Positions 4,659 to 17,180 of a stretch of 17,667 bases of DNA are shown here, piece after piece. Every line of letters begins with the position of its first letter. The stretch's first letter is position 1. The position numbers were made by a program, and so were the translations under genes. The stretch lies in the UHGV virus genome UHGV-0114647. The stretch is one strand, 5' to 3'. The DNA comes from a virus. The notes beneath the pieces are model-generated. The model was not told the DNA's origin and ran no database searches. It saw only the letters and a program-made list of their open reading frames with translations.

Positions 4659-4970
4659 ATGGAAAAGGTTTATAACACTCGTAAAATTCAGATTTCTATC
4701 CTGTGCCAGTTTATGGCTGATAAACACAACTCCCACTATTGTGGTACAGGTTTCCTTACTTTAGGTGGTGGCTACATTAGCTTTAAAGAAGCTGTGAAGA
4801 TGTACAACGAGCACCCTGAAGGTGACAAAGAGTTGAAACAACTGAAGCTTACTTATGACAAGAAGCGTAAGAAAATTGTATGCTTGAACAACCTTATCAA
4901 GCCAACTGAAAACGTTTATGATGCAATTGGTGAGGAAGGTTTCTTAAAAGTCTTGAAAATAGCTCAGTAA
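4659..4970 (+). CDS. hypothetical protein (103 aa)
   Basis: ORF with AAGGA upstream of the ATG. No recognisable motif. Confidence 0.5.
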   Translation: MEKVYNTRKIQISILCQFMADKHNSHYCGTGFLTLGGGYISFKEAVKMYNEHPEGDKELKQLKLTYDKKRKKIVCLNNLIKPTENVYDAIGEEGFLKVLKIAQ

Positions 4971-4982
4971 ACGTATATGATT

Positions 4983-5014
4983 AGGGAACTGTAAAAGGTT
5001 CCCTTTTTTATTTT
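4983..5014 (+). terminator. rho-independent terminator
   Basis: AGGGAAC-(8 nt loop)-GTTCCCT hairpin followed by a T-rich run TTTTTTATTTT. Confidence 0.6.
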
Positions 5015-5023
5015 GGAGAAATC

Positions 5024-5539
5024 ATGTACCATTCAAATCTGAAACGTGCTGCTGCAATGTCTGTTCTTCGTCTTGATTTTGATGAGCGTCAAGAGTTCAT
5101 CGAGTCACATCAGTATGACTCTTCAAATTCTAATCACATGGTGCTTTGGAATCGTGGTAAGTTCCGTGATAGTGCCTTGTTCCAGTACTACCCTCATTAC
5201 ACTATTGACAACCTCTATGAATACTGCGTTGTCAAGAACACTATTGCAACCCTTAATAAGCTTTGTAGATATTCTGGAAAGAAAGCTTTCACATTAGGCC
5301 ACCATAAGCCTGTGACAAAAGGTGGAGAGCACCATTGCTCGAACTGGTTTATTCAGACTCAAGAAGATAACCAGAAGCAGGGAGAGAAGCTTCCAGAAGC
5401 CCCTAAGATGACTTGGGAGGAACAGAAAGCATATCTTAAAAATAATATGCCACCAATGCTTGACAGGGAATATGCAGTTCTGGCAATATCACTCTTGTTG
5501 AAGCTTGAGACAGTTTATGAGGCAACTTATCATGGCTAG
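5024..5539 (+). CDS. hypothetical protein with possible HNH-like motif (171 aa)
   Basis: GGAGAA RBS. Segment GHHKPVTKGGEHHCSNWFIQTQEDNQKQ loosely resembles the HH-x-P-x3-GG...N core of HNH nucleases. Weak. Confidence 0.45.
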   Translation: MYHSNLKRAAAMSVLRLDFDERQEFIESHQYDSSNSNHMVLWNRGKFRDSALFQYYPHYTIDNLYEYCVVKNTIATLNKLCRYSGKKAFTLGHHKPVTKGGEHHCSNWFIQTQEDNQKQGEKLPEAPKMTWEEQKAYLKNNMPPMLDREYAVLAISLLLKLETVYEATYHG

Positions 5540-5810
5540 AGAACAATGGGATATCAAAGAGCTAATTAGCGAAGCTGGAAATGGTAGTGAGATGTATATG
5601 ATACGTGGTCACGTCCCAGATGCACTTGCTATTGAGATGATAGACCACTACTCCAACGGATTCTATAAAGAGTTTGGAGAGCCAAATATTGAACGTACTT
5701 GGACAAAACCAGTACCAGACGGAACAGGAAACTGTTCAGTTATCTACCATATTGTAGACCCAAAGAAATGTAAATCAGCTATGGCTGTAACATTTGTAAC
5801 TTTTGATTGA
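5532..5810 (+). CDS. hypothetical protein (92 aa)
   Basis: ATG at 5532 overlapping the upstream gene by 8 nt. No recognisable motif. Confidence 0.4.
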   Translation: MAREQWDIKELISEAGNGSEMYMIRGHVPDALAIEMIDHYSNGFYKEFGEPNIERTWTKPVPDGTGNCSVIYHIVDPKKCKSAMAVTFVTFD

Positions 5811-5820
5811 GAGAAATATT

Positions 5821-6702
5821 ATGAAAACTACTATTCGAGTTCTACTTAATTCAAATTCCAAAGGTTCTCATCAAGAGACCTTCAACATTATCCAGTTCCC
5901 TTCTGGGGAGATTGGTGGTAACTTCTCAGAAGACTTAGTAGACTTTGCTGAACATGCTGCTGGTAAGATTGAAAACGTAATATTCACTGTACAAGGTTAT
6001 GACAAAGACACACTCTTTGCATTGGCTATGGCTAAAGAAGCAATTGACCGTTTGATTCCTCAGAAAGCAACCCTGAAAACTGTTGTCTTTGGATTCTTAC
6101 CAAATGCTCGCTATGACCGTCACATGTTTAAAGGTGATGCAGCAGCACTTAAAGTCTTTGCAAATCTTGTAAATGCTATGGAGTTCGATGCAGTATGTGC
6201 TCTGGATACTCACAGTAATGTTGCAGAGAATTTGTTTAAGAGCTTCTACAACCTCCCTCAAAAAGAGGCAGCAGTCCACTTTGCAAGTGACCCACGCATT
6301 GATTACTTAGTGGCTCCAGATGCAGGTGCAGCTAAGAAGACTGAAGAGGCTGCTAAAGAGGTTGAGAAACCTTACATTACAATGGCTAAGGTACGAAACC
6401 TGAAAACTGGTGAAATCACTGGTATGCGAATCCTTGATGATGTAGACTTGACAGGTAAGACCATCATGATTCTGGATGATATCTGTGACGGTGGTCGAAC
6501 ATTTATCGAGGCTGCAAAGTATCTTCGTGAAGCTGGAGCAGAACGTGTAGAACTGTATGTCACTCATGGGATTTTCTCTAAAGGTGTTGAAAATCTCCTT
6601 GACAATGGTATCGACCATATCTACACTACAAACTCACTAGGGGATGAAAAAGACCGTGGTCTTTCCCACTTCTCACAAGTGACCGTAGCAAATATTGAAT
6701 AA
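5821..6702 (+). CDS. ribose-phosphate pyrophosphokinase family protein (Prs-like); candidate ADP-ribose pyrophosphokinase
   Basis: Prs-family landmarks in order: FGFLPNARYDRH (compare FPYxxYARQDR), LDTHS (compare DLHA), LVAPDAGA (compare VVSPDxGG), and the PRPP-binding loop ILDDICDGGRT (compare DDMIDTGGT). Divergent from housekeeping Prs at several of these conserved positions. Confidence 0.8.
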   Translation: MKTTIRVLLNSNSKGSHQETFNIIQFPSGEIGGNFSEDLVDFAEHAAGKIENVIFTVQGYDKDTLFALAMAKEAIDRLIPQKATLKTVVFGFLPNARYDRHMFKGDAAALKVFANLVNAMEFDAVCALDTHSNVAENLFKSFYNLPQKEAAVHFASDPRIDYLVAPDAGAAKKTEEAAKEVEKPYITMAKVRNLKTGEITGMRILDDVDLTGKTIMILDDICDGGRTFIEAAKYLREAGAERVELYVTHGIFSKGVENLLDNGIDHIYTTNSLGDEKDRGLSHFSQVTVANIE

Positions 6703-6708
6703 AAACTT

Positions 6709-6726
6709 TAGGGGCTGAAAGCCCCA
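6709..6726 (+). other. intergenic hairpin GGGGCT-GAA-AGCCCC without a clear U-tract
   Basis: Perfect 6 bp GC-rich stem 20 nt upstream of the NAMPT-like start. Near-identical hairpin recurs at 11570-11587. Confidence 0.4.
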
Positions 6727-6745
6727 CTTTGAGAGAGATAAAAAG

Positions 6746-8572
6746 ATGACTAAATCAATCTATGCAGTACCAGCAGGTCTTAATGCAGATGCTTATAAAG
6801 CGGGTCATATCTATCAGTATCCAGATGCTACACAGTATCTTATGTTGAACTTAACACCTCGTGGAGATAAATGGTTTAACTCTCCGTTAGAGATTGATGG
6901 TGTTGTAGCTTTTGGTATTCAGCGTTTTGTAAAAGACTATCTGGTAGACCACTGGAATGCAACGTTCTTTGAACGTGATAAGAAAGAAGCCATTGACGAA
7001 ATCTTGGAAATCATGAATGGTGTCCTTGGTGCAGATACTATTGGTCGTCAACATTGGGAAGAACTTCATGACTTGGGTTACCTACCTGTTGAAGTCTACT
7101 CTGTAGAGGAAGGTACAATTGTCCCTATGCGTGTCCCGATGATTGTCTTCAAAAATACTGTAGAGGGATTCCATTGGGTAGCTGGTTACCTTGAAGATGC
7201 TTTCTCTGCTGAAATCTGGAAAGCTTGTACGATTGCAACTATTGCACTGCATTACAAACGTATTTGTAAGCAATGGGCTGATTTAACCTGTGACAACGAC
7301 TCCCATTTACCTTGGCAGTGTCATGACTTTGCAATGCGTGGCATGTCTGGCTTCACAGATGATGCGTTTAACGCAGTAGGACACCTGACAAGCTTTAAAG
7401 GTACTGACAGCTTCCCTGCTGTCTACACTGCTAAACGTTCTTATGGTCAGTTTATGGAAGTAAGTGATATCGGCAACTCTGTACCAGCTACTGAACACTC
7501 TGTGATGTGCGCAAACATTTCATGGAATATGAAAGACTTGTCAGAGGAAGATATTCATTCACAGTACATCATGCGGTCTGATAGCTTGCTGGATGCAAAA
7601 CGTTGGCGTGGTGAGGTTAAAACCTTTGAGCATTTACTGGTAGACGTATATCCAACTGGTATTGCAAGTGTTGTTTCAGATACTTACAACTTCTGGCGTA
7701 CTGTTACAGAGATTCTGCCAGAGCTACGTAATGTAATTCTGAATCGTGATGGTAAGTTGGTAATTCGTCCAGACTCTGGAGACCCTGTTCACATTGTTAC
7801 AGGTTACAAAGCCGTTGAATGGGAAACTGCTAAGTCAATGTTCTACAAGCACATGAAAGGTCTTGCACCAGATAATACCCATCTGCATGACACAATCTTG
7901 AATTGTGAAATGTCTGATATTGGTTTTGGGTTCTCTGCTTGGTTAATCTCTGAAGGTTATGAGATGGTTGTTGAAAATGAAGATTTTGATTATATTGATA
8001 CAATCAACCTGATTACCGCTCAGAAAACTGGACAGTTTACTGTGAAGCGTATGTTAACAGCAGAAATTGATGGAGCTATCCACACGCTGTATAACATCTT
8101 TGGTGGTACTGTTAACTCCAAAGGGTACAAAGTACTGGATGAGCACATTGGACTAATCTACGGTGATTCTATCACTCTGGAAAGGGCTAATGAGATTCTG
8201 TCACGTCTTGCTGATAAAGGTTTTGCAAGTTCTAACGTAGTGTTTGGTGTAGGCTCATACACCTATCAGTACCTGACTCGTGACACCTTTGCATTTGCTG
8301 TTAAAGCAACTCTTGCACAGATGGATGGTCAAGAAATTATGCTGGCTAAAGACCCTAAAACTGACAGTGGTCTTAAGAAGTCTGCTTTTGGTGGAGTCGT
8401 CCCTATGTGGGATGGTGACAAGCTAGTAGCTGTAGATGGTTTTGGCTTTGCAGAGTTTGAAGGTGCAATTGACAATTGTCATAGTGCTTTGAAACTGGTA
8501 TTTAGTAACTCGCAACCTTATGGTTACGTTAACCTGCGTGATGTTCGAAATACTATTGACAAGCAACTTTAA
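6746..8572 (+). CDS. nadV: nicotinamide phosphoribosyltransferase family protein (NAMPT/NadV-like), 608 aa
   Basis: N-terminal DAYKAGHIYQYP (compare NAMPT DSYKxxHxxQYP); HDFAMRGMSG...HLTSFKGTDS (compare DFGYRG...HLVNFKGTD); VVSDTYNF; VIRPDSGDP; NSKGYKVL; GDSIT; FGVGSY; LTRD. About 100 aa longer than typical NAMPT. Confidence 0.8.
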   Translation: MTKSIYAVPAGLNADAYKAGHIYQYPDATQYLMLNLTPRGDKWFNSPLEIDGVVAFGIQRFVKDYLVDHWNATFFERDKKEAIDEILEIMNGVLGADTIGRQHWEELHDLGYLPVEVYSVEEGTIVPMRVPMIVFKNTVEGFHWVAGYLEDAFSAEIWKACTIATIALHYKRICKQWADLTCDNDSHLPWQCHDFAMRGMSGFTDDAFNAVGHLTSFKGTDSFPAVYTAKRSYGQFMEVSDIGNSVPATEHSVMCANISWNMKDLSEEDIHSQYIMRSDSLLDAKRWRGEVKTFEHLLVDVYPTGIASVVSDTYNFWRTVTEILPELRNVILNRDGKLVIRPDSGDPVHIVTGYKAVEWETAKSMFYKHMKGLAPDNTHLHDTILNCEMSDIGFGFSAWLISEGYEMVVENEDFDYIDTINLITAQKTGQFTVKRMLTAEIDGAIHTLYNIFGGTVNSKGYKVLDEHIGLIYGDSITLERANEILSRLADKGFASSNVVFGVGSYTYQYLTRDTFAFAVKATLAQMDGQEIMLAKDPKTDSGLKKSAFGGVVPMWDGDKLVAVDGFGFAEFEGAIDNCHSALKLVFSNSQPYGYVNLRDVRNTIDKQL

Positions 8573-8585
8573 AACAGTATGATAA

Positions 8586-8612
8586 GAGGCTCCTACGGGA
8601 GCCTTTTTAATT
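8586..8612 (+). terminator. rho-independent terminator
   Basis: GGCTCC-TACG-GGAGCC hairpin followed by TTTTTAATTT. Confidence 0.6.
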
Positions 8613-8625
8613 TGTGGAGATTACT

Positions 8626-8961
8626 ATGAAAATTAAACAGATGAATGTTAATTTAATCATTGAAGAACGTTGGGAAAACATCAAGCGCCATGAAGATGGT
8701 CATAAGTTTATCAATGAACTGTTTCAAGCAGCACAATCAGAGTTAGCTTCTGAGATTTATACAACGGTTACTTTGAAGGTTTATATCAAAGGTCTTCCAC
8801 AGAACCATCAAGAAGCTCTTGATTTGTTTCAAGAAGAATTTTACAATCCAAACAAAAAGATACTTGAGAATAGTTTTGCAGTATCTTCGAGTATTGTCCA
8901 TGACAGGAGTTTTGTCCTATTCAGAACTATAGGAGACAAGGTATGCAAGGTTATTGGTTAG
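8626..8961 (+). CDS. hypothetical protein (111 aa)
   Basis: ATG at 8626 with GGAG at 8616-8619. No recognisable motif. Confidence 0.5.
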   Translation: MKIKQMNVNLIIEERWENIKRHEDGHKFINELFQAAQSELASEIYTTVTLKVYIKGLPQNHQEALDLFQEEFYNPNKKILENSFAVSSSIVHDRSFVLFRTIGDKVCKVIG

Positions 8962-9122
8962 AAATTGTTCTTTCACTCGGTTGTATTGTTGCTATTGCAG
9001 TGTTACTATGCAAGTACTTCTCAGAGACTGAACCTTGTGATGGGTGTGAGGGTTCTGGGTTAGTTGGTATAGGACATTGTTGCCCTTACTGCAATGGAAC
9101 TGGAAAGAAATTTAAAAAGTAA
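8943..9122 (+). CDS. putative membrane-anchored micro-protein with DnaJ-type CxxCxGxG zinc finger (59 aa)
   Basis: Below the ORF-track cutoff. GGAGA RBS at 8931-8935, ATG at 8943. Translates to MQGYWLEIVLSLGCIVAIAVLLCKYFSETEPCDGCEGSGLVGIGHCCPYCNGTGKKFKK: one TM helix followed by CDGCEGSG and CPYCNGTG. Confidence 0.4.
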   Translation: MQGYWLEIVLSLGCIVAIAVLLCKYFSETEPCDGCEGSGLVGIGHCCPYCNGTGKKFKK

Positions 9123-9184: not shown

Positions 9185-11557
9185 ATGCGCATGGTAAATG
9201 ACCACGCAACGGTAATTAAAAGCTCAAGTACACTGGAAACCTCTCAGGCTCAAATTAAGATGACACCTGAAATGTTCAGTCTTCTAAGCTCAGGTGTTTA
9301 CACATATAAAGAACGTGCTGTAATTCGTGAGTTATCATGTAACGCAGTAGATGCTCACATTGATTCTGGTAATGTTGATAAACCTTTCTTGGTTCACTTA
9401 CCAACTCGTTTTGAACCATTCTTTGAAGTTCGTGACTTTGGTACAGGGCTGACTCATGAAAAAGTTATGAAACTTTACATGACCTATGGAGAATCCACAA
9501 AGAACGATTCAAATGACTACATTGGTGCTATGGGTATCGGTTCAAAGTCACCATTTGCAATTGCTCAGTCATTCACTGTATCGAGCTATGTTGATGGTGT
9601 AGTTAACAAATACTCAGTTTACCTTGAGAATGGTATCCCTCAAGTAACTAAGTTGACTACTAACCCAACTACAGAGCCAAATGGTTTAGCTGTTCGAGTA
9701 GCGGTATCTGATAACCGTATTAACAAGTTTCATGAAGAAGCGAGCAATGTATACTCGTACTTTAAAGTTAAGCCAGAGTGTAATGTTGAGTACTATGACA
9801 TTCTTGAAGCAATGACTTCCATTTCTCGTGAAGATGGTGTCTATGATGCAATGAAGTACAAAGAGAACTGGCGTTCAAATAGTAACAGTGTCCATTTCAA
9901 CGTAATCATGGGTAATATTGCTTATCCTGTTGAAATGGGTGAGTTGCTTGGTTCAGAGTTTACAAGCATTCTGCCTCAGTTCTTCCGTAGTGCTGTAGAC
10001 CTTGTTAACATCTACATGCCAATTGGTTCAGTGGCTATTGCTGCATCCCGTGAAGCGTTGCAGATGAATGAGACTACTAAGACCAAGATTGTTGAAGCTG
10101 TGAAGAAAATTACTAAGACAATCGTAGAAGATGTGGTAAAAGAGATTGCTAATAAGCCAACTCTTATTGATGCTGCACAGGCTTACGATACCATGAGGAA
10201 AGAGGCTCGTGAAATCTTTAATCACGTCCAAGATTCTCTGGAATGGCAAGGCCAGAACTTGAAAAAGCTTGAACAGAAACTATTAGGTATTCGTCGTGGT
10301 CAGTTAACTGAAGCAGATGGTTCTCCGTCATTCTTGAAAGATGATGCAGGTAACTTGCGGCTTGACAAAGATGGTAATCCAGTTCCTAATATTGGTAATC
10401 TGTATGAACCTGTAGCATACTACAAGTACAGCAGTCTGGAGAATCGTATTCGAGCAACTTCAGCAACTTATTCACAAGATGCAGCAATGTTTAGTATCTT
10501 TGGTGCAATGAGTAAAGATAAGTTGAGCAACTATTTGTTCCTTATCAATGACCGTCGAAACAAAAACGGGTCTGAAAAGACAACTGGTAAAAACCAGATT
10601 ATACGTGGAGCTTGCCGTGACCGTGAACAGGAAGACTCTAACTTCCGTCGCTACAATGGTATTGCTTTCTTGTTCAGTAGTCAGCAGCAATTTGATGAGT
10701 TTGTAGATTTACATATGCTTGACAAGAGTCTGTTAAGTGTGCATACAATGTCATCTAAAGAGCACCACTATGAAAAACGTACTATTGTACGTGGTGTTGT
10801 AAAACTGTATAAAGCATTTATATGTCCAAATACTTACATGATTCGTTATACAGAGGTTAAAGAGAACTTTGATGAGATTGAAGAACCACAACTGTATATC
10901 AAAGCACAGAGTGATGAAGTGATTGGTGGAATCTTCTCATGTTCACCAGAACGTGCTGCAACGTTGATGACAGAGTTAACTGGACAGTCAGTTTATGTCT
11001 TCCGTAAAGCCAACTGGAAAAAGATTCCTGAAGACTGGACAGAAGTCAATGAACAAGTAATGAAAGATTTTATTGATAACACTCATTGGATTGAGTATCA
11101 TCGTTACTTGACTCACCAATATATGACTAATAATCATGATATCACTGATTGTAATGTGATTTCTCGAAACTTTATGTTTGCTGATAAGCGTAAGTCCAGA
11201 GGCCACATTTACAGTAAAGACTTTAAGAAGACTATTTTCTTAGAGGGGAATGAAGAGGCTATAGAAGCAATGTTTGGACGCTTGGCATATACTGCTGCAC
11301 CAGTTGCTTACAAAGATATTACCAGCACTCTTGATACCATCCGCAGGAATATGAGAGGCTCTTGTAAGCCAAGAAAGGTACTGGATAATGCTAAGAAGCG
11401 TCTTGAAAGCAAGTTCAAAGATTACTTTGAGAAACGCCGTAAAGAAAACTTCTTGCTTTCTAATCTGGATTGGAATAAAGTATCACCCGTCGAAGTTGGT
11501 AAGTTTTTAGGTTTTAACACTAAGAGCATCCCAGAAGATACCAACTGTTGGGAATAA
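9185..11557 (+). CDS. rIIA: rIIA protein (membrane-associated, GHKL-type ATPase N-terminal domain)
   Basis: N-terminus FSLLSSGVYTYKERAVIRELSCNAVDAH carries the GHKL N-box (E-L-x-x-N-A-x-D-A), and NDYIGAMGIGSKSPFA the G-box. Both segments closely track T4 rIIA as recalled. Size of 790 aa fits. Confidence 0.8.
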   Translation: MRMVNDHATVIKSSSTLETSQAQIKMTPEMFSLLSSGVYTYKERAVIRELSCNAVDAHIDSGNVDKPFLVHLPTRFEPFFEVRDFGTGLTHEKVMKLYMTYGESTKNDSNDYIGAMGIGSKSPFAIAQSFTVSSYVDGVVNKYSVYLENGIPQVTKLTTNPTTEPNGLAVRVAVSDNRINKFHEEASNVYSYFKVKPECNVEYYDILEAMTSISREDGVYDAMKYKENWRSNSNSVHFNVIMGNIAYPVEMGELLGSEFTSILPQFFRSAVDLVNIYMPIGSVAIAASREALQMNETTKTKIVEAVKKITKTIVEDVVKEIANKPTLIDAAQAYDTMRKEAREIFNHVQDSLEWQGQNLKKLEQKLLGIRRGQLTEADGSPSFLKDDAGNLRLDKDGNPVPNIGNLYEPVAYYKYSSLENRIRATSATYSQDAAMFSIFGAMSKDKLSNYLFLINDRRNKNGSEKTTGKNQIIRGACRDREQEDSNFRRYNGIAFLFSSQQQFDEFVDLHMLDKSLLSVHTMSSKEHHYEKRTIVRGVVKLYKAFICPNTYMIRYTEVKENFDEIEEPQLYIKAQSDEVIGGIFSCSPERAATLMTELTGQSVYVFRKANWKKIPEDWTEVNEQVMKDFIDNTHWIEYHRYLTHQYMTNNHDITDCNVISRNFMFADKRKSRGHIYSKDFKKTIFLEGNEEAIEAMFGRLAYTAAPVAYKDITSTLDTIRRNMRGSCKPRKVLDNAKKRLESKFKDYFEKRRKENFLLSNLDWNKVSPVEVGKFLGFNTKSIPEDTNCWE

Positions 11558-11636: not shown

Positions 11637-12749
11637 ATGACTACTAAGACTAAAGCACAAATCGACGCAGAAATCTATGCACTGGTTAAAGAAGGTAAAC
11701 TGACCAAAACTGCAATCGCTCTGAAGTATAACACTTCAACCCGTTCGGTAGGTCGTGCTGTAGAGCGTCATGAAGCAACGCTGCTGTCAGGGAAAACCAA
11801 AGCAAAACCTGAAAAGACTCTGAAAGATATTGCAAAGAAAGCTAAAGCGACCAAGAAAGTATCTAAGCAGAAGCCTGTTGCAAAAGCTGTTAAAGAAGCA
11901 GTCAAAGCAGAACCTGTAAATGCTCTGCATGAAGCAATGCAGAAGAACAGCCAGATTGAGTACATGATTACTGGTGATTCTGTTATCATGACTTTCGGTG
12001 CAGAGTCTGAGATTGTTGAGTCAACTCACCCTAACTACACTGATATTGTAATGGCTGTTGTTTCAGGTGAGTACAAGAAAGCTTTTGAACTGATGAACAT
12101 TCGCAAGTCTATTGAGAACTTCACTCAGGGTGCTGTAACCATCAAAGGCGACAACCTGTATTACGGTGCTGTTCAGATGCGCTCAACTCTGGTAGACCGT
12201 ATTCTGGATATGATGAAGAAAGGTGATAATGGTTTTGTTCGACTGATTGCATTCTTCGAAAAACTGATGGAAAACCCATCAAAAGATTCTGTAGAACAAC
12301 TTTGGGGCTTTGTATCACACCTCGATGTTGAAATTGATGAAGAAGGTTATATCATCGGTTGGAAGAAAGTCACAACTCGTGGTGGTAAACTGTTTGACTC
12401 TCGTACCTGCAAAGTTCCAAATGATTTGGGTAACATTGTAGAGATGCCACGTTGGATGGTTGATAATAACCGCCATGTAACCTGCTCTCAGGGTCTGCAC
12501 GTTGGTGCTTGGAATTATGTAACTAGCTTCTCTGGTGACACTATCCTGAAAGTTCGTGTTCATCCTCGTGATGTTGTTTCAGTACCAACTGACTACAACG
12601 ACATGAAAATGCGAGCTTCCCGTTATGAAGTTGCAGCGATTGTAAATAGTCGCCGTGAAGTCATCAAAGAGTGGGATGGTTCAGAAGCACTCCACGTAGT
12701 TGTAGGTACTGCTGGTGAACTGATTTCTCAGCGTAAACGTGAAGTCTAA
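11637..12749 (+). CDS. rIIB: rIIB protein
   Basis: Immediately downstream of rIIA in the same orientation, as in T4. N-terminal region has the helix-turn-helix-like pattern expected for rIIB. Assignment is by synteny plus weak recalled similarity. Confidence 0.55.
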   Translation: MTTKTKAQIDAEIYALVKEGKLTKTAIALKYNTSTRSVGRAVERHEATLLSGKTKAKPEKTLKDIAKKAKATKKVSKQKPVAKAVKEAVKAEPVNALHEAMQKNSQIEYMITGDSVIMTFGAESEIVESTHPNYTDIVMAVVSGEYKKAFELMNIRKSIENFTQGAVTIKGDNLYYGAVQMRSTLVDRILDMMKKGDNGFVRLIAFFEKLMENPSKDSVEQLWGFVSHLDVEIDEEGYIIGWKKVTTRGGKLFDSRTCKVPNDLGNIVEMPRWMVDNNRHVTCSQGLHVGAWNYVTSFSGDTILKVRVHPRDVVSVPTDYNDMKMRASRYEVAAIVNSRREVIKEWDGSEALHVVVGTAGELISQRKREV

Positions 12750-16385: not shown

Positions 16386-17180
16386 ATGGGTATCGTAAAA
16401 ATTATTAAAGGTGATATCTTTAAAGACTTTGATGGTAAGAAGTTTGATATCATTGGTCACGGTTGTAACTGTATGAACTTGATGCCAGCAGGTATCGCAG
16501 CAACAATTGCCAAACGTTACCCAAAAGCTTATGAAACTGACGCTGAAGTTTATGCTGCAGTAGGTGGTGAAAATCATAACCCTAAGCATCTAATGCTTGG
16601 TAACATCTCTGTAGCACGTTTTAAGCAGGGTCGAATTGCTAACCTTTACACTCAGGTTATCACTGGCAAAGATGCACGATACAACGCCTTAGAAGCAGCT
16701 TTACAGCGTCTTAACAACTACTGTAAAGTTAATCAACTTAAGAAAGTTGGGCTTCCGATGATTGGTGCAGGGATTGGTGGTCTTGATAGCATGGCTGTGC
16801 TGTCCATTATCAACCAGACTATGAAGGATGTTGACGTTTATATGTATGTCTATGAAGATAAGATGTACAGTCAGTTGACTAGTCCTGTTACTGGTTGGGA
16901 GAACTTCAGTGAGCCTCAATACTTTGATGGTGTTGCTGTGGTAGGCAAGGATAAAGTTACCCTCAAGGTGAAGCGTAATGGCAAGGTACACACCAGTTAC
17001 CCTCCGGTTGAGAAGTACAATCGGAGTAACGCTCAAGTTACCCACCCGTTACAAGGCCACCACCACAGAGCGGTAACGTTTGGTGATGATGCAAGTGTAT
17101 ATATCAATGCGACTACAGAAGAGTTTGCAGAAGATTATATCACACATGAAAACGTAAACTATGTTGAAGCACGTAACTAA
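16386..17180 (+). CDS. macro-domain protein (ADP-ribose binding/processing) with C-terminal extension
   Basis: N-terminus MGIVKIIKGDIFKDFDGKKFDIIGHGCNCMNLMPAGIAATIAKRYP matches the macro-domain opening (GDI-[TF]...D-x-I-V-N-A-A-N...G-G-V). Later GLPMIGAGIGGLD resembles the phosphate-binding glycine-rich loop. Confidence 0.6.
   Translation: MGIVKIIKGDIFKDFDGKKFDIIGHGCNCMNLMPAGIAATIAKRYPKAYETDAEVYAAVGGENHNPKHLMLGNISVARFKQGRIANLYTQVITGKDARYNALEAALQRLNNYCKVNQLKKVGLPMIGAGIGGLDSMAVLSIINQTMKDVDVYMYVYEDKMYSQLTSPVTGWENFSEPQYFDGVAVVGKDKVTLKVKRNGKVHTSYPPVEKYNRSNAQVTHPLQGHHHRAVTFGDDASVYINATTEEFAEDYITHENVNYVEARN

Follow-up and report, generated by a model that had tools for sequence, protein, structure and literature searches.

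The question raised by positions 5821–8572 of UHGV-0114647, a virus genome analyzed here as a stretch of 17,667 nucleotides (the window), is whether a Prs-like gene and the NAMPT-like gene directly downstream of it serve classical nicotinamide salvage or the rebuilding of nicotinamide adenine dinucleotide (NAD+) after a host defense has depleted it. A preliminary description, made from the sequence alone, had proposed the latter in the form of a two-gene phage NAD+ reconstitution pathway, and we found the proposal well founded: the pair is very probably the published NAD+ reconstitution pathway 1 (NARP1), a route that rebuilds NAD+ from the pieces left after NAD+-depleting defense and whose founding example is genes 79–80 of phage Bas63 (Osterman et al. 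2024, 10.1101/2024.02.11.579819). This reading draws on orthology and synteny with the Bas63 genes, on sister proteins already listed in the published tables, and on the presence of the published enzyme determinants. NARP1 comprises two proteins, Adps and Namat. The predicted Adps of the window (5821–6702, ATG start) is a 293-aa, Prs-like ADP-ribose pyrophosphokinase that would convert ADP-ribose (ADPR) and ATP to ADP-ribose pyrophosphate (ADPR-PP) and AMP, and the predicted Namat (6746–8572, ATG start) is a 608-aa, NAMPT-like nicotinamide ADP-ribose transferase that would convert ADPR-PP and nicotinamide to NAD+ and pyrophosphate. The two genes are adjacent on the + strand, on which all features given below also lie, and are separated by a 43-nt spacer, each open reading frame (ORF) having a GAGAGA-type Shine-Dalgarno sequence upstream; a TTG at 5803 offers a possible upstream extension of the first. 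The side-by-side arrangement of a Prs-like and a NAMPT-like gene, as originally described, agrees with the ORFs and with the Pfam and PHROG matches.

In the proposed mechanism, host effectors of the SIR2, TIR, or SEFIR type (SIR2-HerA/Nezha, type I Thoeris, DSR2) would cleave NAD+ to ADP-ribose and nicotinamide. Adps, with a remodeled fold of the phosphoribosyl pyrophosphate (PRPP) synthetases, would take the beta-gamma pyrophosphate from ATP and attach it to ADP-ribose at the 1'' hydroxyl to give ADPR-PP, and Namat, a NAMPT fold with an adenine-binding "selectivity clamp," would replace the pyrophosphate of ADPR-PP with nicotinamide. NAD+ would be formed directly in this way, with no nicotinamide mononucleotide (NMN) intermediate and no NMN adenylyltransferase (NMNAT) required. 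Both reactions have been demonstrated with purified proteins of the Bacillus phage SPbetaL1, in which Adps makes ADPR-PP from ADPR and ATP, and Namat makes NAD+ from ADPR-PP and nicotinamide (10.1101/2024.02.11.579819); the Adps reaction has also been demonstrated for the enzyme of Vibrio phage ICP1 (PMC13586617). We infer that the window proteins themselves carry out these same two reactions.

The DNA around the pair (5500–8700) was 99.2% identical to that of Shigella phage ESh19 and 99.0% identical to that of phage SFPB, and matched 259 phage records, nearly all of them 85–90 kb phages of Escherichia, Salmonella, Shigella, and Citrobacter. ESh19 is classified in the subfamily Ounavirinae, genus Mooglevirus, and, judged by this identity, the window is that of a Mooglevirus phage. 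Bas63 (MZ501086; Escherichia phage JohannRWettstein) is a Felixounavirus, also within Ounavirinae, and its 46–64 kb region is collinear with the window, the order common to both being NrdD, NrdG, 77, 78, 79, 80, rIIA, rIIB, polynucleotide kinase, spanins, and a Macro-domain protein (0095, "putative phosphatase"). The two loci share subfamily, gene order, flanks, protein lengths and architecture, two insertions in Namat, an intergenic hairpin, and promoter and terminator elements; they differ in genus, in the larger Namat insertion (~45% identical), and in nrdD, which is interrupted in Bas63. The window Adps was 81% identical to Bas63 gp79 (237/293 residues, gap-free) and Namat 75%–77% identical to Bas63 gp80. 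Closer relatives are already tabulated: the supplementary tables of the NARP1 study list the proteins of phages Sf13 and KPS64 (Shigella) and of Michonne and Moogle (Citrobacter) as "Adps-associated" Namat and Namat-associated Adps (10.1101/2024.02.11.579819). All of these are near-identical to the window proteins, and KPS64 Adps (Table S1 of Osterman et al.) differs from the window Adps at 2 of 293 residues.

What is known of the orthologous operon in vivo comes from two independent studies. Deletion of Bas63 genes 79–80 led to SIR2-HerA sensitivity and deeper NAD+ loss, wild-type Bas63 overcame SIR2-HerA even in a host without pncC and nadR, and ADPR-PP (m/z 720.01) was found only in SIR2-HerA cells infected by wild-type Bas63, its formation requiring genes 79–80 (10.1101/2024.02.11.579819). 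In the PhageMaP study, deletion of either g79 or g80 lowered Bas63 plating on a Sir2-HerA host by 1e4–1e6, and complementation restored it (10.1101/2024.10.10.617714). By analogy with its Bas63 orthologue, the window pair would be expected to protect its phage from NAD+-depleting defenses.

By family names, the pair would instead be read as classical salvage, in which a genuine PRPP synthetase supplies a NadV/NAMPT enzyme that makes NMN, and host NadR or NadD/PncC completes the path to NAD+. Pfam and NCBIfam names, as well as the GenBank annotations of all relatives, follow this reading, and the first protein indeed matched PF14572 (Pribosyl_synth, E 1.4e-10), PF00156 (Pribosyltran, E 5.6e-11), and phrog_619 ("ribose-phosphate pyrophosphokinase," E 5e-99), with ribose-phosphate pyrophosphokinases as its best PDB sequence matches. 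It also passed the broad model TIGR01251 (130 bits, where 113 is required), and this model alone; on the Prs equivalog models it fell far below the cut-offs (99 versus 297 bits for NF002320 and 107 versus 296 for NF002095). For comparison, E. coli Prs scored 533 bits on NF002320 and 423 on TIGR01251, whereas the validated SPbetaL1 Adps scored 74 and 106 and Bas63 Adps 101 and 138. Scored with hidden Markov models (HMMs), then, the window protein behaves like validated Adps and not like Prs (~100 bits against 533), reaching about one-fifth of the E. coli score on models of that type, which favors an ADP-ribose pyrophosphokinase in the choice that the preliminary description had left between the two. 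Moreover, the Adps of SPbetaL1 did not yield the product of Prs in vitro (10.1101/2024.02.11.579819). Sequence identity, the published table entry, the model scores, and phrog_619, rather than a phylogeny, argue for placing the protein in the phage Adps clade and not among housekeeping Prs.

The residues that define Adps point the same way. In structures of ICP1 Adps (apo, substrate, and product), the catalytic K185 is located on a beta-hairpin, the PP-loop C215–S220 binds the ATP donor, R87, H121, D161, D212, and D213 form the acceptor site, F18 and F92 contact adenine, and the C-terminal helices of PRPS are lost (PMC13586617). Substitution of the hairpin lysine (K185A in ICP1, K162A in SPbetaL1) abolishes activity (PMC13586617; 10.1101/2024.02.11.579819). 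We aligned the window protein with ICP1-like Adps, comparing five Adps sequences overall, and found K190, R192, R97, H131, D167, D219, D220, F26, and F228 conserved relative to ICP1, including the equivalents of F18, R87, H121, D161, D212, and D213. K190 lies in the hairpin MAKVRNLKTGEI and aligns with ICP1 K185 and SPbetaL1 K162; the hairpin pattern K-x-R-[ND]-x-x-T-G-x-I was common to all five Adps compared, while E. coli Prs reads DKRRPRANV there. The motifs DDICDGGRT and LDTHS, which had been singled out as departures from canonical Prs, are both in place, at aa 219–227 (nt 6475–6501) and aa 128–132 (nt 6202–6216). The first is the PP-loop, D219-D220-I221-C222-D223-G224-G225-R226-T227, against D212-D213-I214-C215-D216-G217-A218-A219-S220 in ICP1; DDICDG is thus shared with ICP1 despite an overall identity of ~32%, and where the two loops diverge, the ICP1 residues make their contacts through backbone amides (PMC13586617). 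DDICDGGRT is not universal in Adps, as the characterized SPbetaL1 enzyme has DDLSSFGGT.

Relative to E. coli Prs and cellular NAMPT, the window proteins keep the folds and the Pfam families, and the Asp pair, His, and Arg of the acceptor site are likewise retained. The window Adps is only 24%–25% identical to E. coli Prs, and its flexible loop and PP-loop are remodeled. At 293 aa against 315, the window protein ends ~20 residues before the Prs end, and the alignment stops before the Prs C-terminal segment, leaving it without the alpha11–alpha12 regulatory and filament module of PRPS.

For the second protein, family names (PF04095, NAPRTase; PF18127, NAMPT_N; NF006629 at 466 bits; phrog_448, "nicotinamide phosphoribosyl transferase," E 7e-198) likewise suggest salvage, but its best solved structures were 9W5W and 9W5X (E 3e-124), well ahead of human, rat, and mouse NAMPT (~1e-41). 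These two structures align to the window Namat as SPbetaL1 Namat does. The catalytic core is intact (D15, Y17, F195, R198, D221, A248, H251, R341, and D343), corresponding to D13, Y15, F189, R192, D215, A242, H245, R306, and D308 of SPbetaL1 Namat, for which roles have been assigned (PMC12774641). The same structural study defined the adenine-binding selectivity clamp of Namat (PMC12774641). Its clamp-helix motif is present in the window protein as GSYTYQYLTRD (aa 503–513), where the Nampt of Vibrio phage KVP40 has GGGLLQQLDRD; Y505 and Y509 are aromatic, and the phi3 position is Leu (Met in Bas63) against a consensus of Asn/Val. In the clamp loop (TPRGDKWF), Lys occupies the third position and Trp the fourth (K42-W43), as has been reported for Bas63 Namat, compared with the stacking residue R40 of SPbetaL1 Namat (PMC12774641). 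The window pair shares with SPbetaL1 (Adps WIT26982, Namat WIT26983) two adjacent genes in the same order, the catalytic lysine (K162/K190), the Namat core, and the clamp-helix motif, and differs from it in identity (30% for Adps, 45% for Namat), PP-loop, and clamp-loop residue.

If NAD+ is formed directly, no NMNAT need accompany the pair, and the preliminary description had noted that none was visible. This observation was upheld and extended to complete genomes. Pfam scans of 29 window ORFs yielded no cytidylyltransferase and no Nudix family, and tblastn with E. coli NadR and NadD and a T5-like NadR-type NMNAT gave no match better than E 0.7 in the window and in the complete ESh19 and Bas63 genomes, with NadM/NatV-type enzymes not queried; the search did retrieve a positive control locus, at E 2e-54. 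The T5-like query belongs to the type since named NARP3, a PnuC-like transporter with a NadR-like enzyme (PMC13464706). The NadR-like matches listed across the phage database were in Vibrio phages, T5-like phages of 110–125 kb, and other large phages, not in the ~88 kb Ounavirinae. KVP40 NARP2 (the Nampt NadV with the bifunctional Nmnat NatV) shares the NAMPT fold with the window Namat, and both pass NF006629; it differs in its clamp-helix motif, in a short clamp-loop equivalent, in its identity of 29%, in having no Adps partner, and in needing an Nmnat. A search for KVP40 natV within 6 kb of nadV did not find it. With no phage NMNAT match to the NadR, NadD, and T5-type queries and no Nampt-type clamp, the locus does not fit NARP2, and with no NadR-like match in the window, ESh19, or Bas63, it does not fit NARP3. 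In a separate observation, two queries, Adps and E. coli NadR, both matched ICP1 records (e.g., MW794143 and MW794144), NadR at 36% identity across 84% of its length. ICP1 may thus carry a NadR-like NMNAT or kinase in addition to NARP1, in contrast to the Ounavirinae.

Because of the Adps-like model scores, the Namat clamp, the lack of an NMNAT match, and the independence of Bas63 from pncC and nadR, we consider a classical pairing of PRPP synthetase and NadV highly improbable. It retains in its favor that the enterobacterial host encodes NadR and NadD, and that SPbetaL1 Namat, which prefers ADPR-PP over PRPP, can make NMN from PRPP in vitro when ADPR-PP is absent (10.1101/2024.02.11.579819). 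Nonetheless, the orthologous Bas63 operon works where the host has neither pncC nor nadR and makes ADPR-PP in vivo, and the window protein carries the adenine clamp that defines Namat and lacks the Nampt-type motif. Still less probable is a general auxiliary metabolic module that boosts nucleotide and NAD+ supply for replication, defense or not, for although the pair adjoins NrdD/NrdG (with NrdA/B nearby in relatives) and Bas63 g79 and g80 also counter, more weakly, the Ec86 retron and the hhe system, neither of them a classical NADase (10.1101/2024.10.10.617714), ADPR-PP was seen only with an NAD+-cleaving defense present, ADPR is itself the product of that cleavage, and the defect reported for the Bas63 deletion mutant, which was compared on hosts with and without defense, was on the SIR2-HerA host.

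Several points weigh against assigning the pair to NARP1. The Bas63 protein "did not purify well" (10.1101/2024.02.11.579819), and the in vitro data come from enzymes outside Ounavirinae, the purified homologues sharing just 30%–32% (Adps) and 45% (Namat) identity with the window proteins. Since SPbetaL1 Namat can make NMN from PRPP, some classical activity is possible. Two contact residues of ICP1 Adps, F92 and F223, are not kept in the window protein, where they correspond to M102 and E230; the F92 position is a gap in the validated SPbetaL1 Adps and Cys in a Pseudomonas phage homologue. The co-transcription of the pair with two upstream genes, described below, was read from consensus scans alone. 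Finally, the window Namat has two insertions, at ~aa 258–289 (~nt 7517–7612) and ~aa 355–442 (~nt 7805–8071), both absent from the crystallized SPbetaL1 Namat (491 aa versus 608) and from KVP40 Nampt. These insertions do not undermine the assignment, because Bas63 shares both and works in vivo.

The larger insertion was found in 255 phage records, and every listed match was inside a Namat gene or in an unannotated record. While whole Namat is ~76% identical between Mooglevirus and Felixounavirus, this segment retains only the ~45% given above and evolves much faster; the first insertion is 15 aa longer in the window than in Bas63. We considered an intein or homing element and rejected it, as the frame reads through without a break and the segment is confined to Ounavirinae Namat genes. 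The larger segment is therefore treated here as a lineage-specific insertion.

The pair appears to belong to a longer transcription unit. Terminators had been described as bounding the pair, and terminator-like hairpins with T-runs are present, at 4983–5004 and 8584–8607; the unit they delimit, however, contains four genes, since two further ORFs (5024–5539 and 5532–5810) lie upstream of Adps. The upstream element (4983–5012 with its T-run) has an 8-bp stem with four G-C pairs and would close the preceding unit; it is largely kept in Bas63, where, in our reading of the alignment, a single stem substitution would still allow a G-U pair. It is abutted by a sigma-70-like sequence, TTGAAA-17-TATGAT (4953–4981, 10/12 matches), the candidate promoter of the four-gene unit, of which the -35 hexamer is invariant across the window, Bas63, and ESh19 and the -10 varies (TATGAT/TACTAT). 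The downstream element (8584–8612) has a 10-bp stem and would close the four-gene unit, its stem being invariant and its loop different in ESh19. A second sigma-70-like promoter, TTGACA-16-TATGAT (8556–8583, 11/12 matches), overlaps the Namat end, would serve the next unit, and is kept in Bas63 and ESh19. Each terminator is thus preceded within 1–2 bases by a sigma-70-like promoter (4953–5012 and 8556–8612), and both composites are kept in Bas63 and ESh19, so that one short intergenic composite could end one unit and start the next. A transcript starting just past the -10 would have its first bases within the 5' arm of the hairpin and hence escape termination, whereas incoming transcripts would be terminated. 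We infer a self-contained unit of four genes (the gp77 and gp78 homologues, Adps, and Namat) running from the 4953–4981 promoter to the 8584–8612 terminator. Between Adps and Namat is a G+C-rich hairpin, GGGGCUGAAAGCCCC (6711–6725; -11 kcal/mol, z -2.6), with a stem that is invariant and a loop that is variable in Bas63 and ESh19; it has no T-run on the + strand and might act in RNA stability or processing.

The first gene of this unit (5024–5539; 171 aa; phrog_3500, E 2e-92) encodes a gp77 homologue with 76% identity to bas63_0077. Deletion of gp77 in Bas63 made plating 10-fold lower on an Ec67-retron host, complementation restored it, and the preprint terms the product a GIY-YIG protein (10.1101/2024.10.10.617714). 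The window protein gave remote matches only to HNH-endonuclease PHROGs, and weak ones at that (motif HHKPVTKGGEHHCSNW), with none in Pfam, which puts the published domain assignment in doubt. The second gene (5532–5810; 92 aa; phrog_4726, E 8e-60) starts within an overlap with the stop of the first and ends 10 nt before the Adps gene; its product is 66% identical to bas63_0078, which is also next to NARP1 in Bas63, and had zero Pfam matches, even at E 10.

Elsewhere in the window, we identified products corresponding to NrdD, NrdG, rIIA, rIIB, polynucleotide kinase, and a Macro-domain protein, together with putative spanins, as in the Bas63 annotation of syntenic genes. The nrdD gene (386–2617) is a single uninterrupted ORF. 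The Bas63 annotation joins nrdD from two pieces, between which lies a homing-endonuclease gene, and thus the window phage has the allele without the insertion. The rIIA (9185–11557) and rIIB (11637–12749) homologues correspond to Bas63 g84/g85, which have been reported as counters of QatABCD (preprint 10.1101/2024.10.10.617714). Several window genes would therefore be anti-defense genes by homology with their Bas63 counterparts. PADLOC returned weak ShosT/PsyrT matches of the phosphoribosyltransferase domain and a marginal SduA match of a 115-aa downstream protein, none of them informative.

The Macro-domain gene raises a further possibility. The aRES defense cleaves NAD+ into nicotinamide and ADPR-1''-phosphate, the latter being of no use to NARP1, and in the arrangement named NARP1-AP, found in 15% of NARP1 operons, a Poa1p-like Macro phosphatase (Adpp) restores ADPR (preprint 10.64898/2026.01.28.702374). 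The window gene (16386–17180, within an ORF from 16329; the probable start at 16386 is that annotated in ESh19) is a bas63_0095 homologue ~7.7 kb and ~15 genes downstream of Namat, encoding a Poa1p/TARG1/DarG-class Macro-domain protein with a ~90-aa C-terminal extension. Its Macro domain scored 29 bits on PF01661 (cut-off 22), its best PDB sequence matches were yeast Poa1p, an ADP-ribose 1''-phosphate phosphatase, and it was 29% identical (E 2e-15) to Adpp from Vibrio phage Gary, which has been validated. An HMM built from 13 published NARP1-associated Adpp, which does not detect E. coli YmdB, gave 108 bits for this protein and no other match in ESh19. In an AlphaFold (AF2) model with 24 homologues aligned, the mean predicted local distance difference test score (pLDDT) was 86.8 (a single-sequence model, at pLDDT 33, was discarded), and Foldseek placed TARG1, Poa1p, and DarG about equally close (E ~3e-9, target template-modeling scores of 0.75–0.86). 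The ~90 C-terminal residues are rich in beta-strands and are not covered by the alignments to the best matches, and H25, the equivalent of Poa1p H23, is invariant in the family alignment. The supplements of the aRES preprint (10.64898/2026.01.28.702374) did not yield the residues mutated in Adpp.

It is thus possible, though on present evidence rather unlikely, that Ounavirinae have a dispersed NARP1-AP, in which the candidate Adpp-like Macro protein would dephosphorylate the aRES product ADPR-1''-phosphate and so supply ADPR to Adps and Namat. The Gary operon (Adps, Adpp, Namat) includes its Macro gene, whereas in the window it is distal and has an extra C-terminal domain. No Macro gene lies within two genes of Adps or Namat in the window, and the ORFs flanking the pair (5024–5539, 5532–5810, 8614–8961, and 8943–9122) matched no Macro or RyR (RyDEP-like) Pfam family, even at E 10; the 59-aa flanking ORF had sub-threshold matches to unrelated families only. 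A dispersed arrangement would have been missed by the NARP1-AP survey, because its scan reached no farther than two genes to each side of NARP1 and its table contains no Ounavirinae phage, Felix, Sf13, Moogle, and JohannRWettstein all being absent (10.64898/2026.01.28.702374). Against a specific link to NARP1, the Macro family has members in 2,748 phage records, including many 150–170 kb genomes of Escherichia, Klebsiella, and Salmonella phages, and the fold class also holds the ADP-ribosyl glycohydrolases TARG1 and DarG. The conserved synteny from Namat to the Macro gene was considered as a functional link and rejected, given that the whole region is collinear in divergent relatives of this phage group.

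The system described here is already known. NARP1 has been published, its structural basis has been dissected, and the phage that supplied its founding example belongs to the same subfamily; the two reactions of NARP1 were new to biochemistry and let phages undo the NAD+ depletion caused by Thoeris, SIR2-HerA, DSR2, and similar defenses. The founding work reportedly appeared later in Nature, in 2024. As a close orthologue of the founding operon with sister proteins already tabulated, the window pair adds no new knowledge of NARP1, and its practical value is one of annotation: the genes that GenBank labels "ribose-phosphate pyrophosphokinase" and "nicotinamide phosphoribosyltransferase" in this phage group should be renamed Adps and Namat. 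The sole wider interest lies in the candidate extension to aRES products via the distal Macro gene, and if the dispersed NARP1-AP were true, Ounavirinae phages would also resist aRES.

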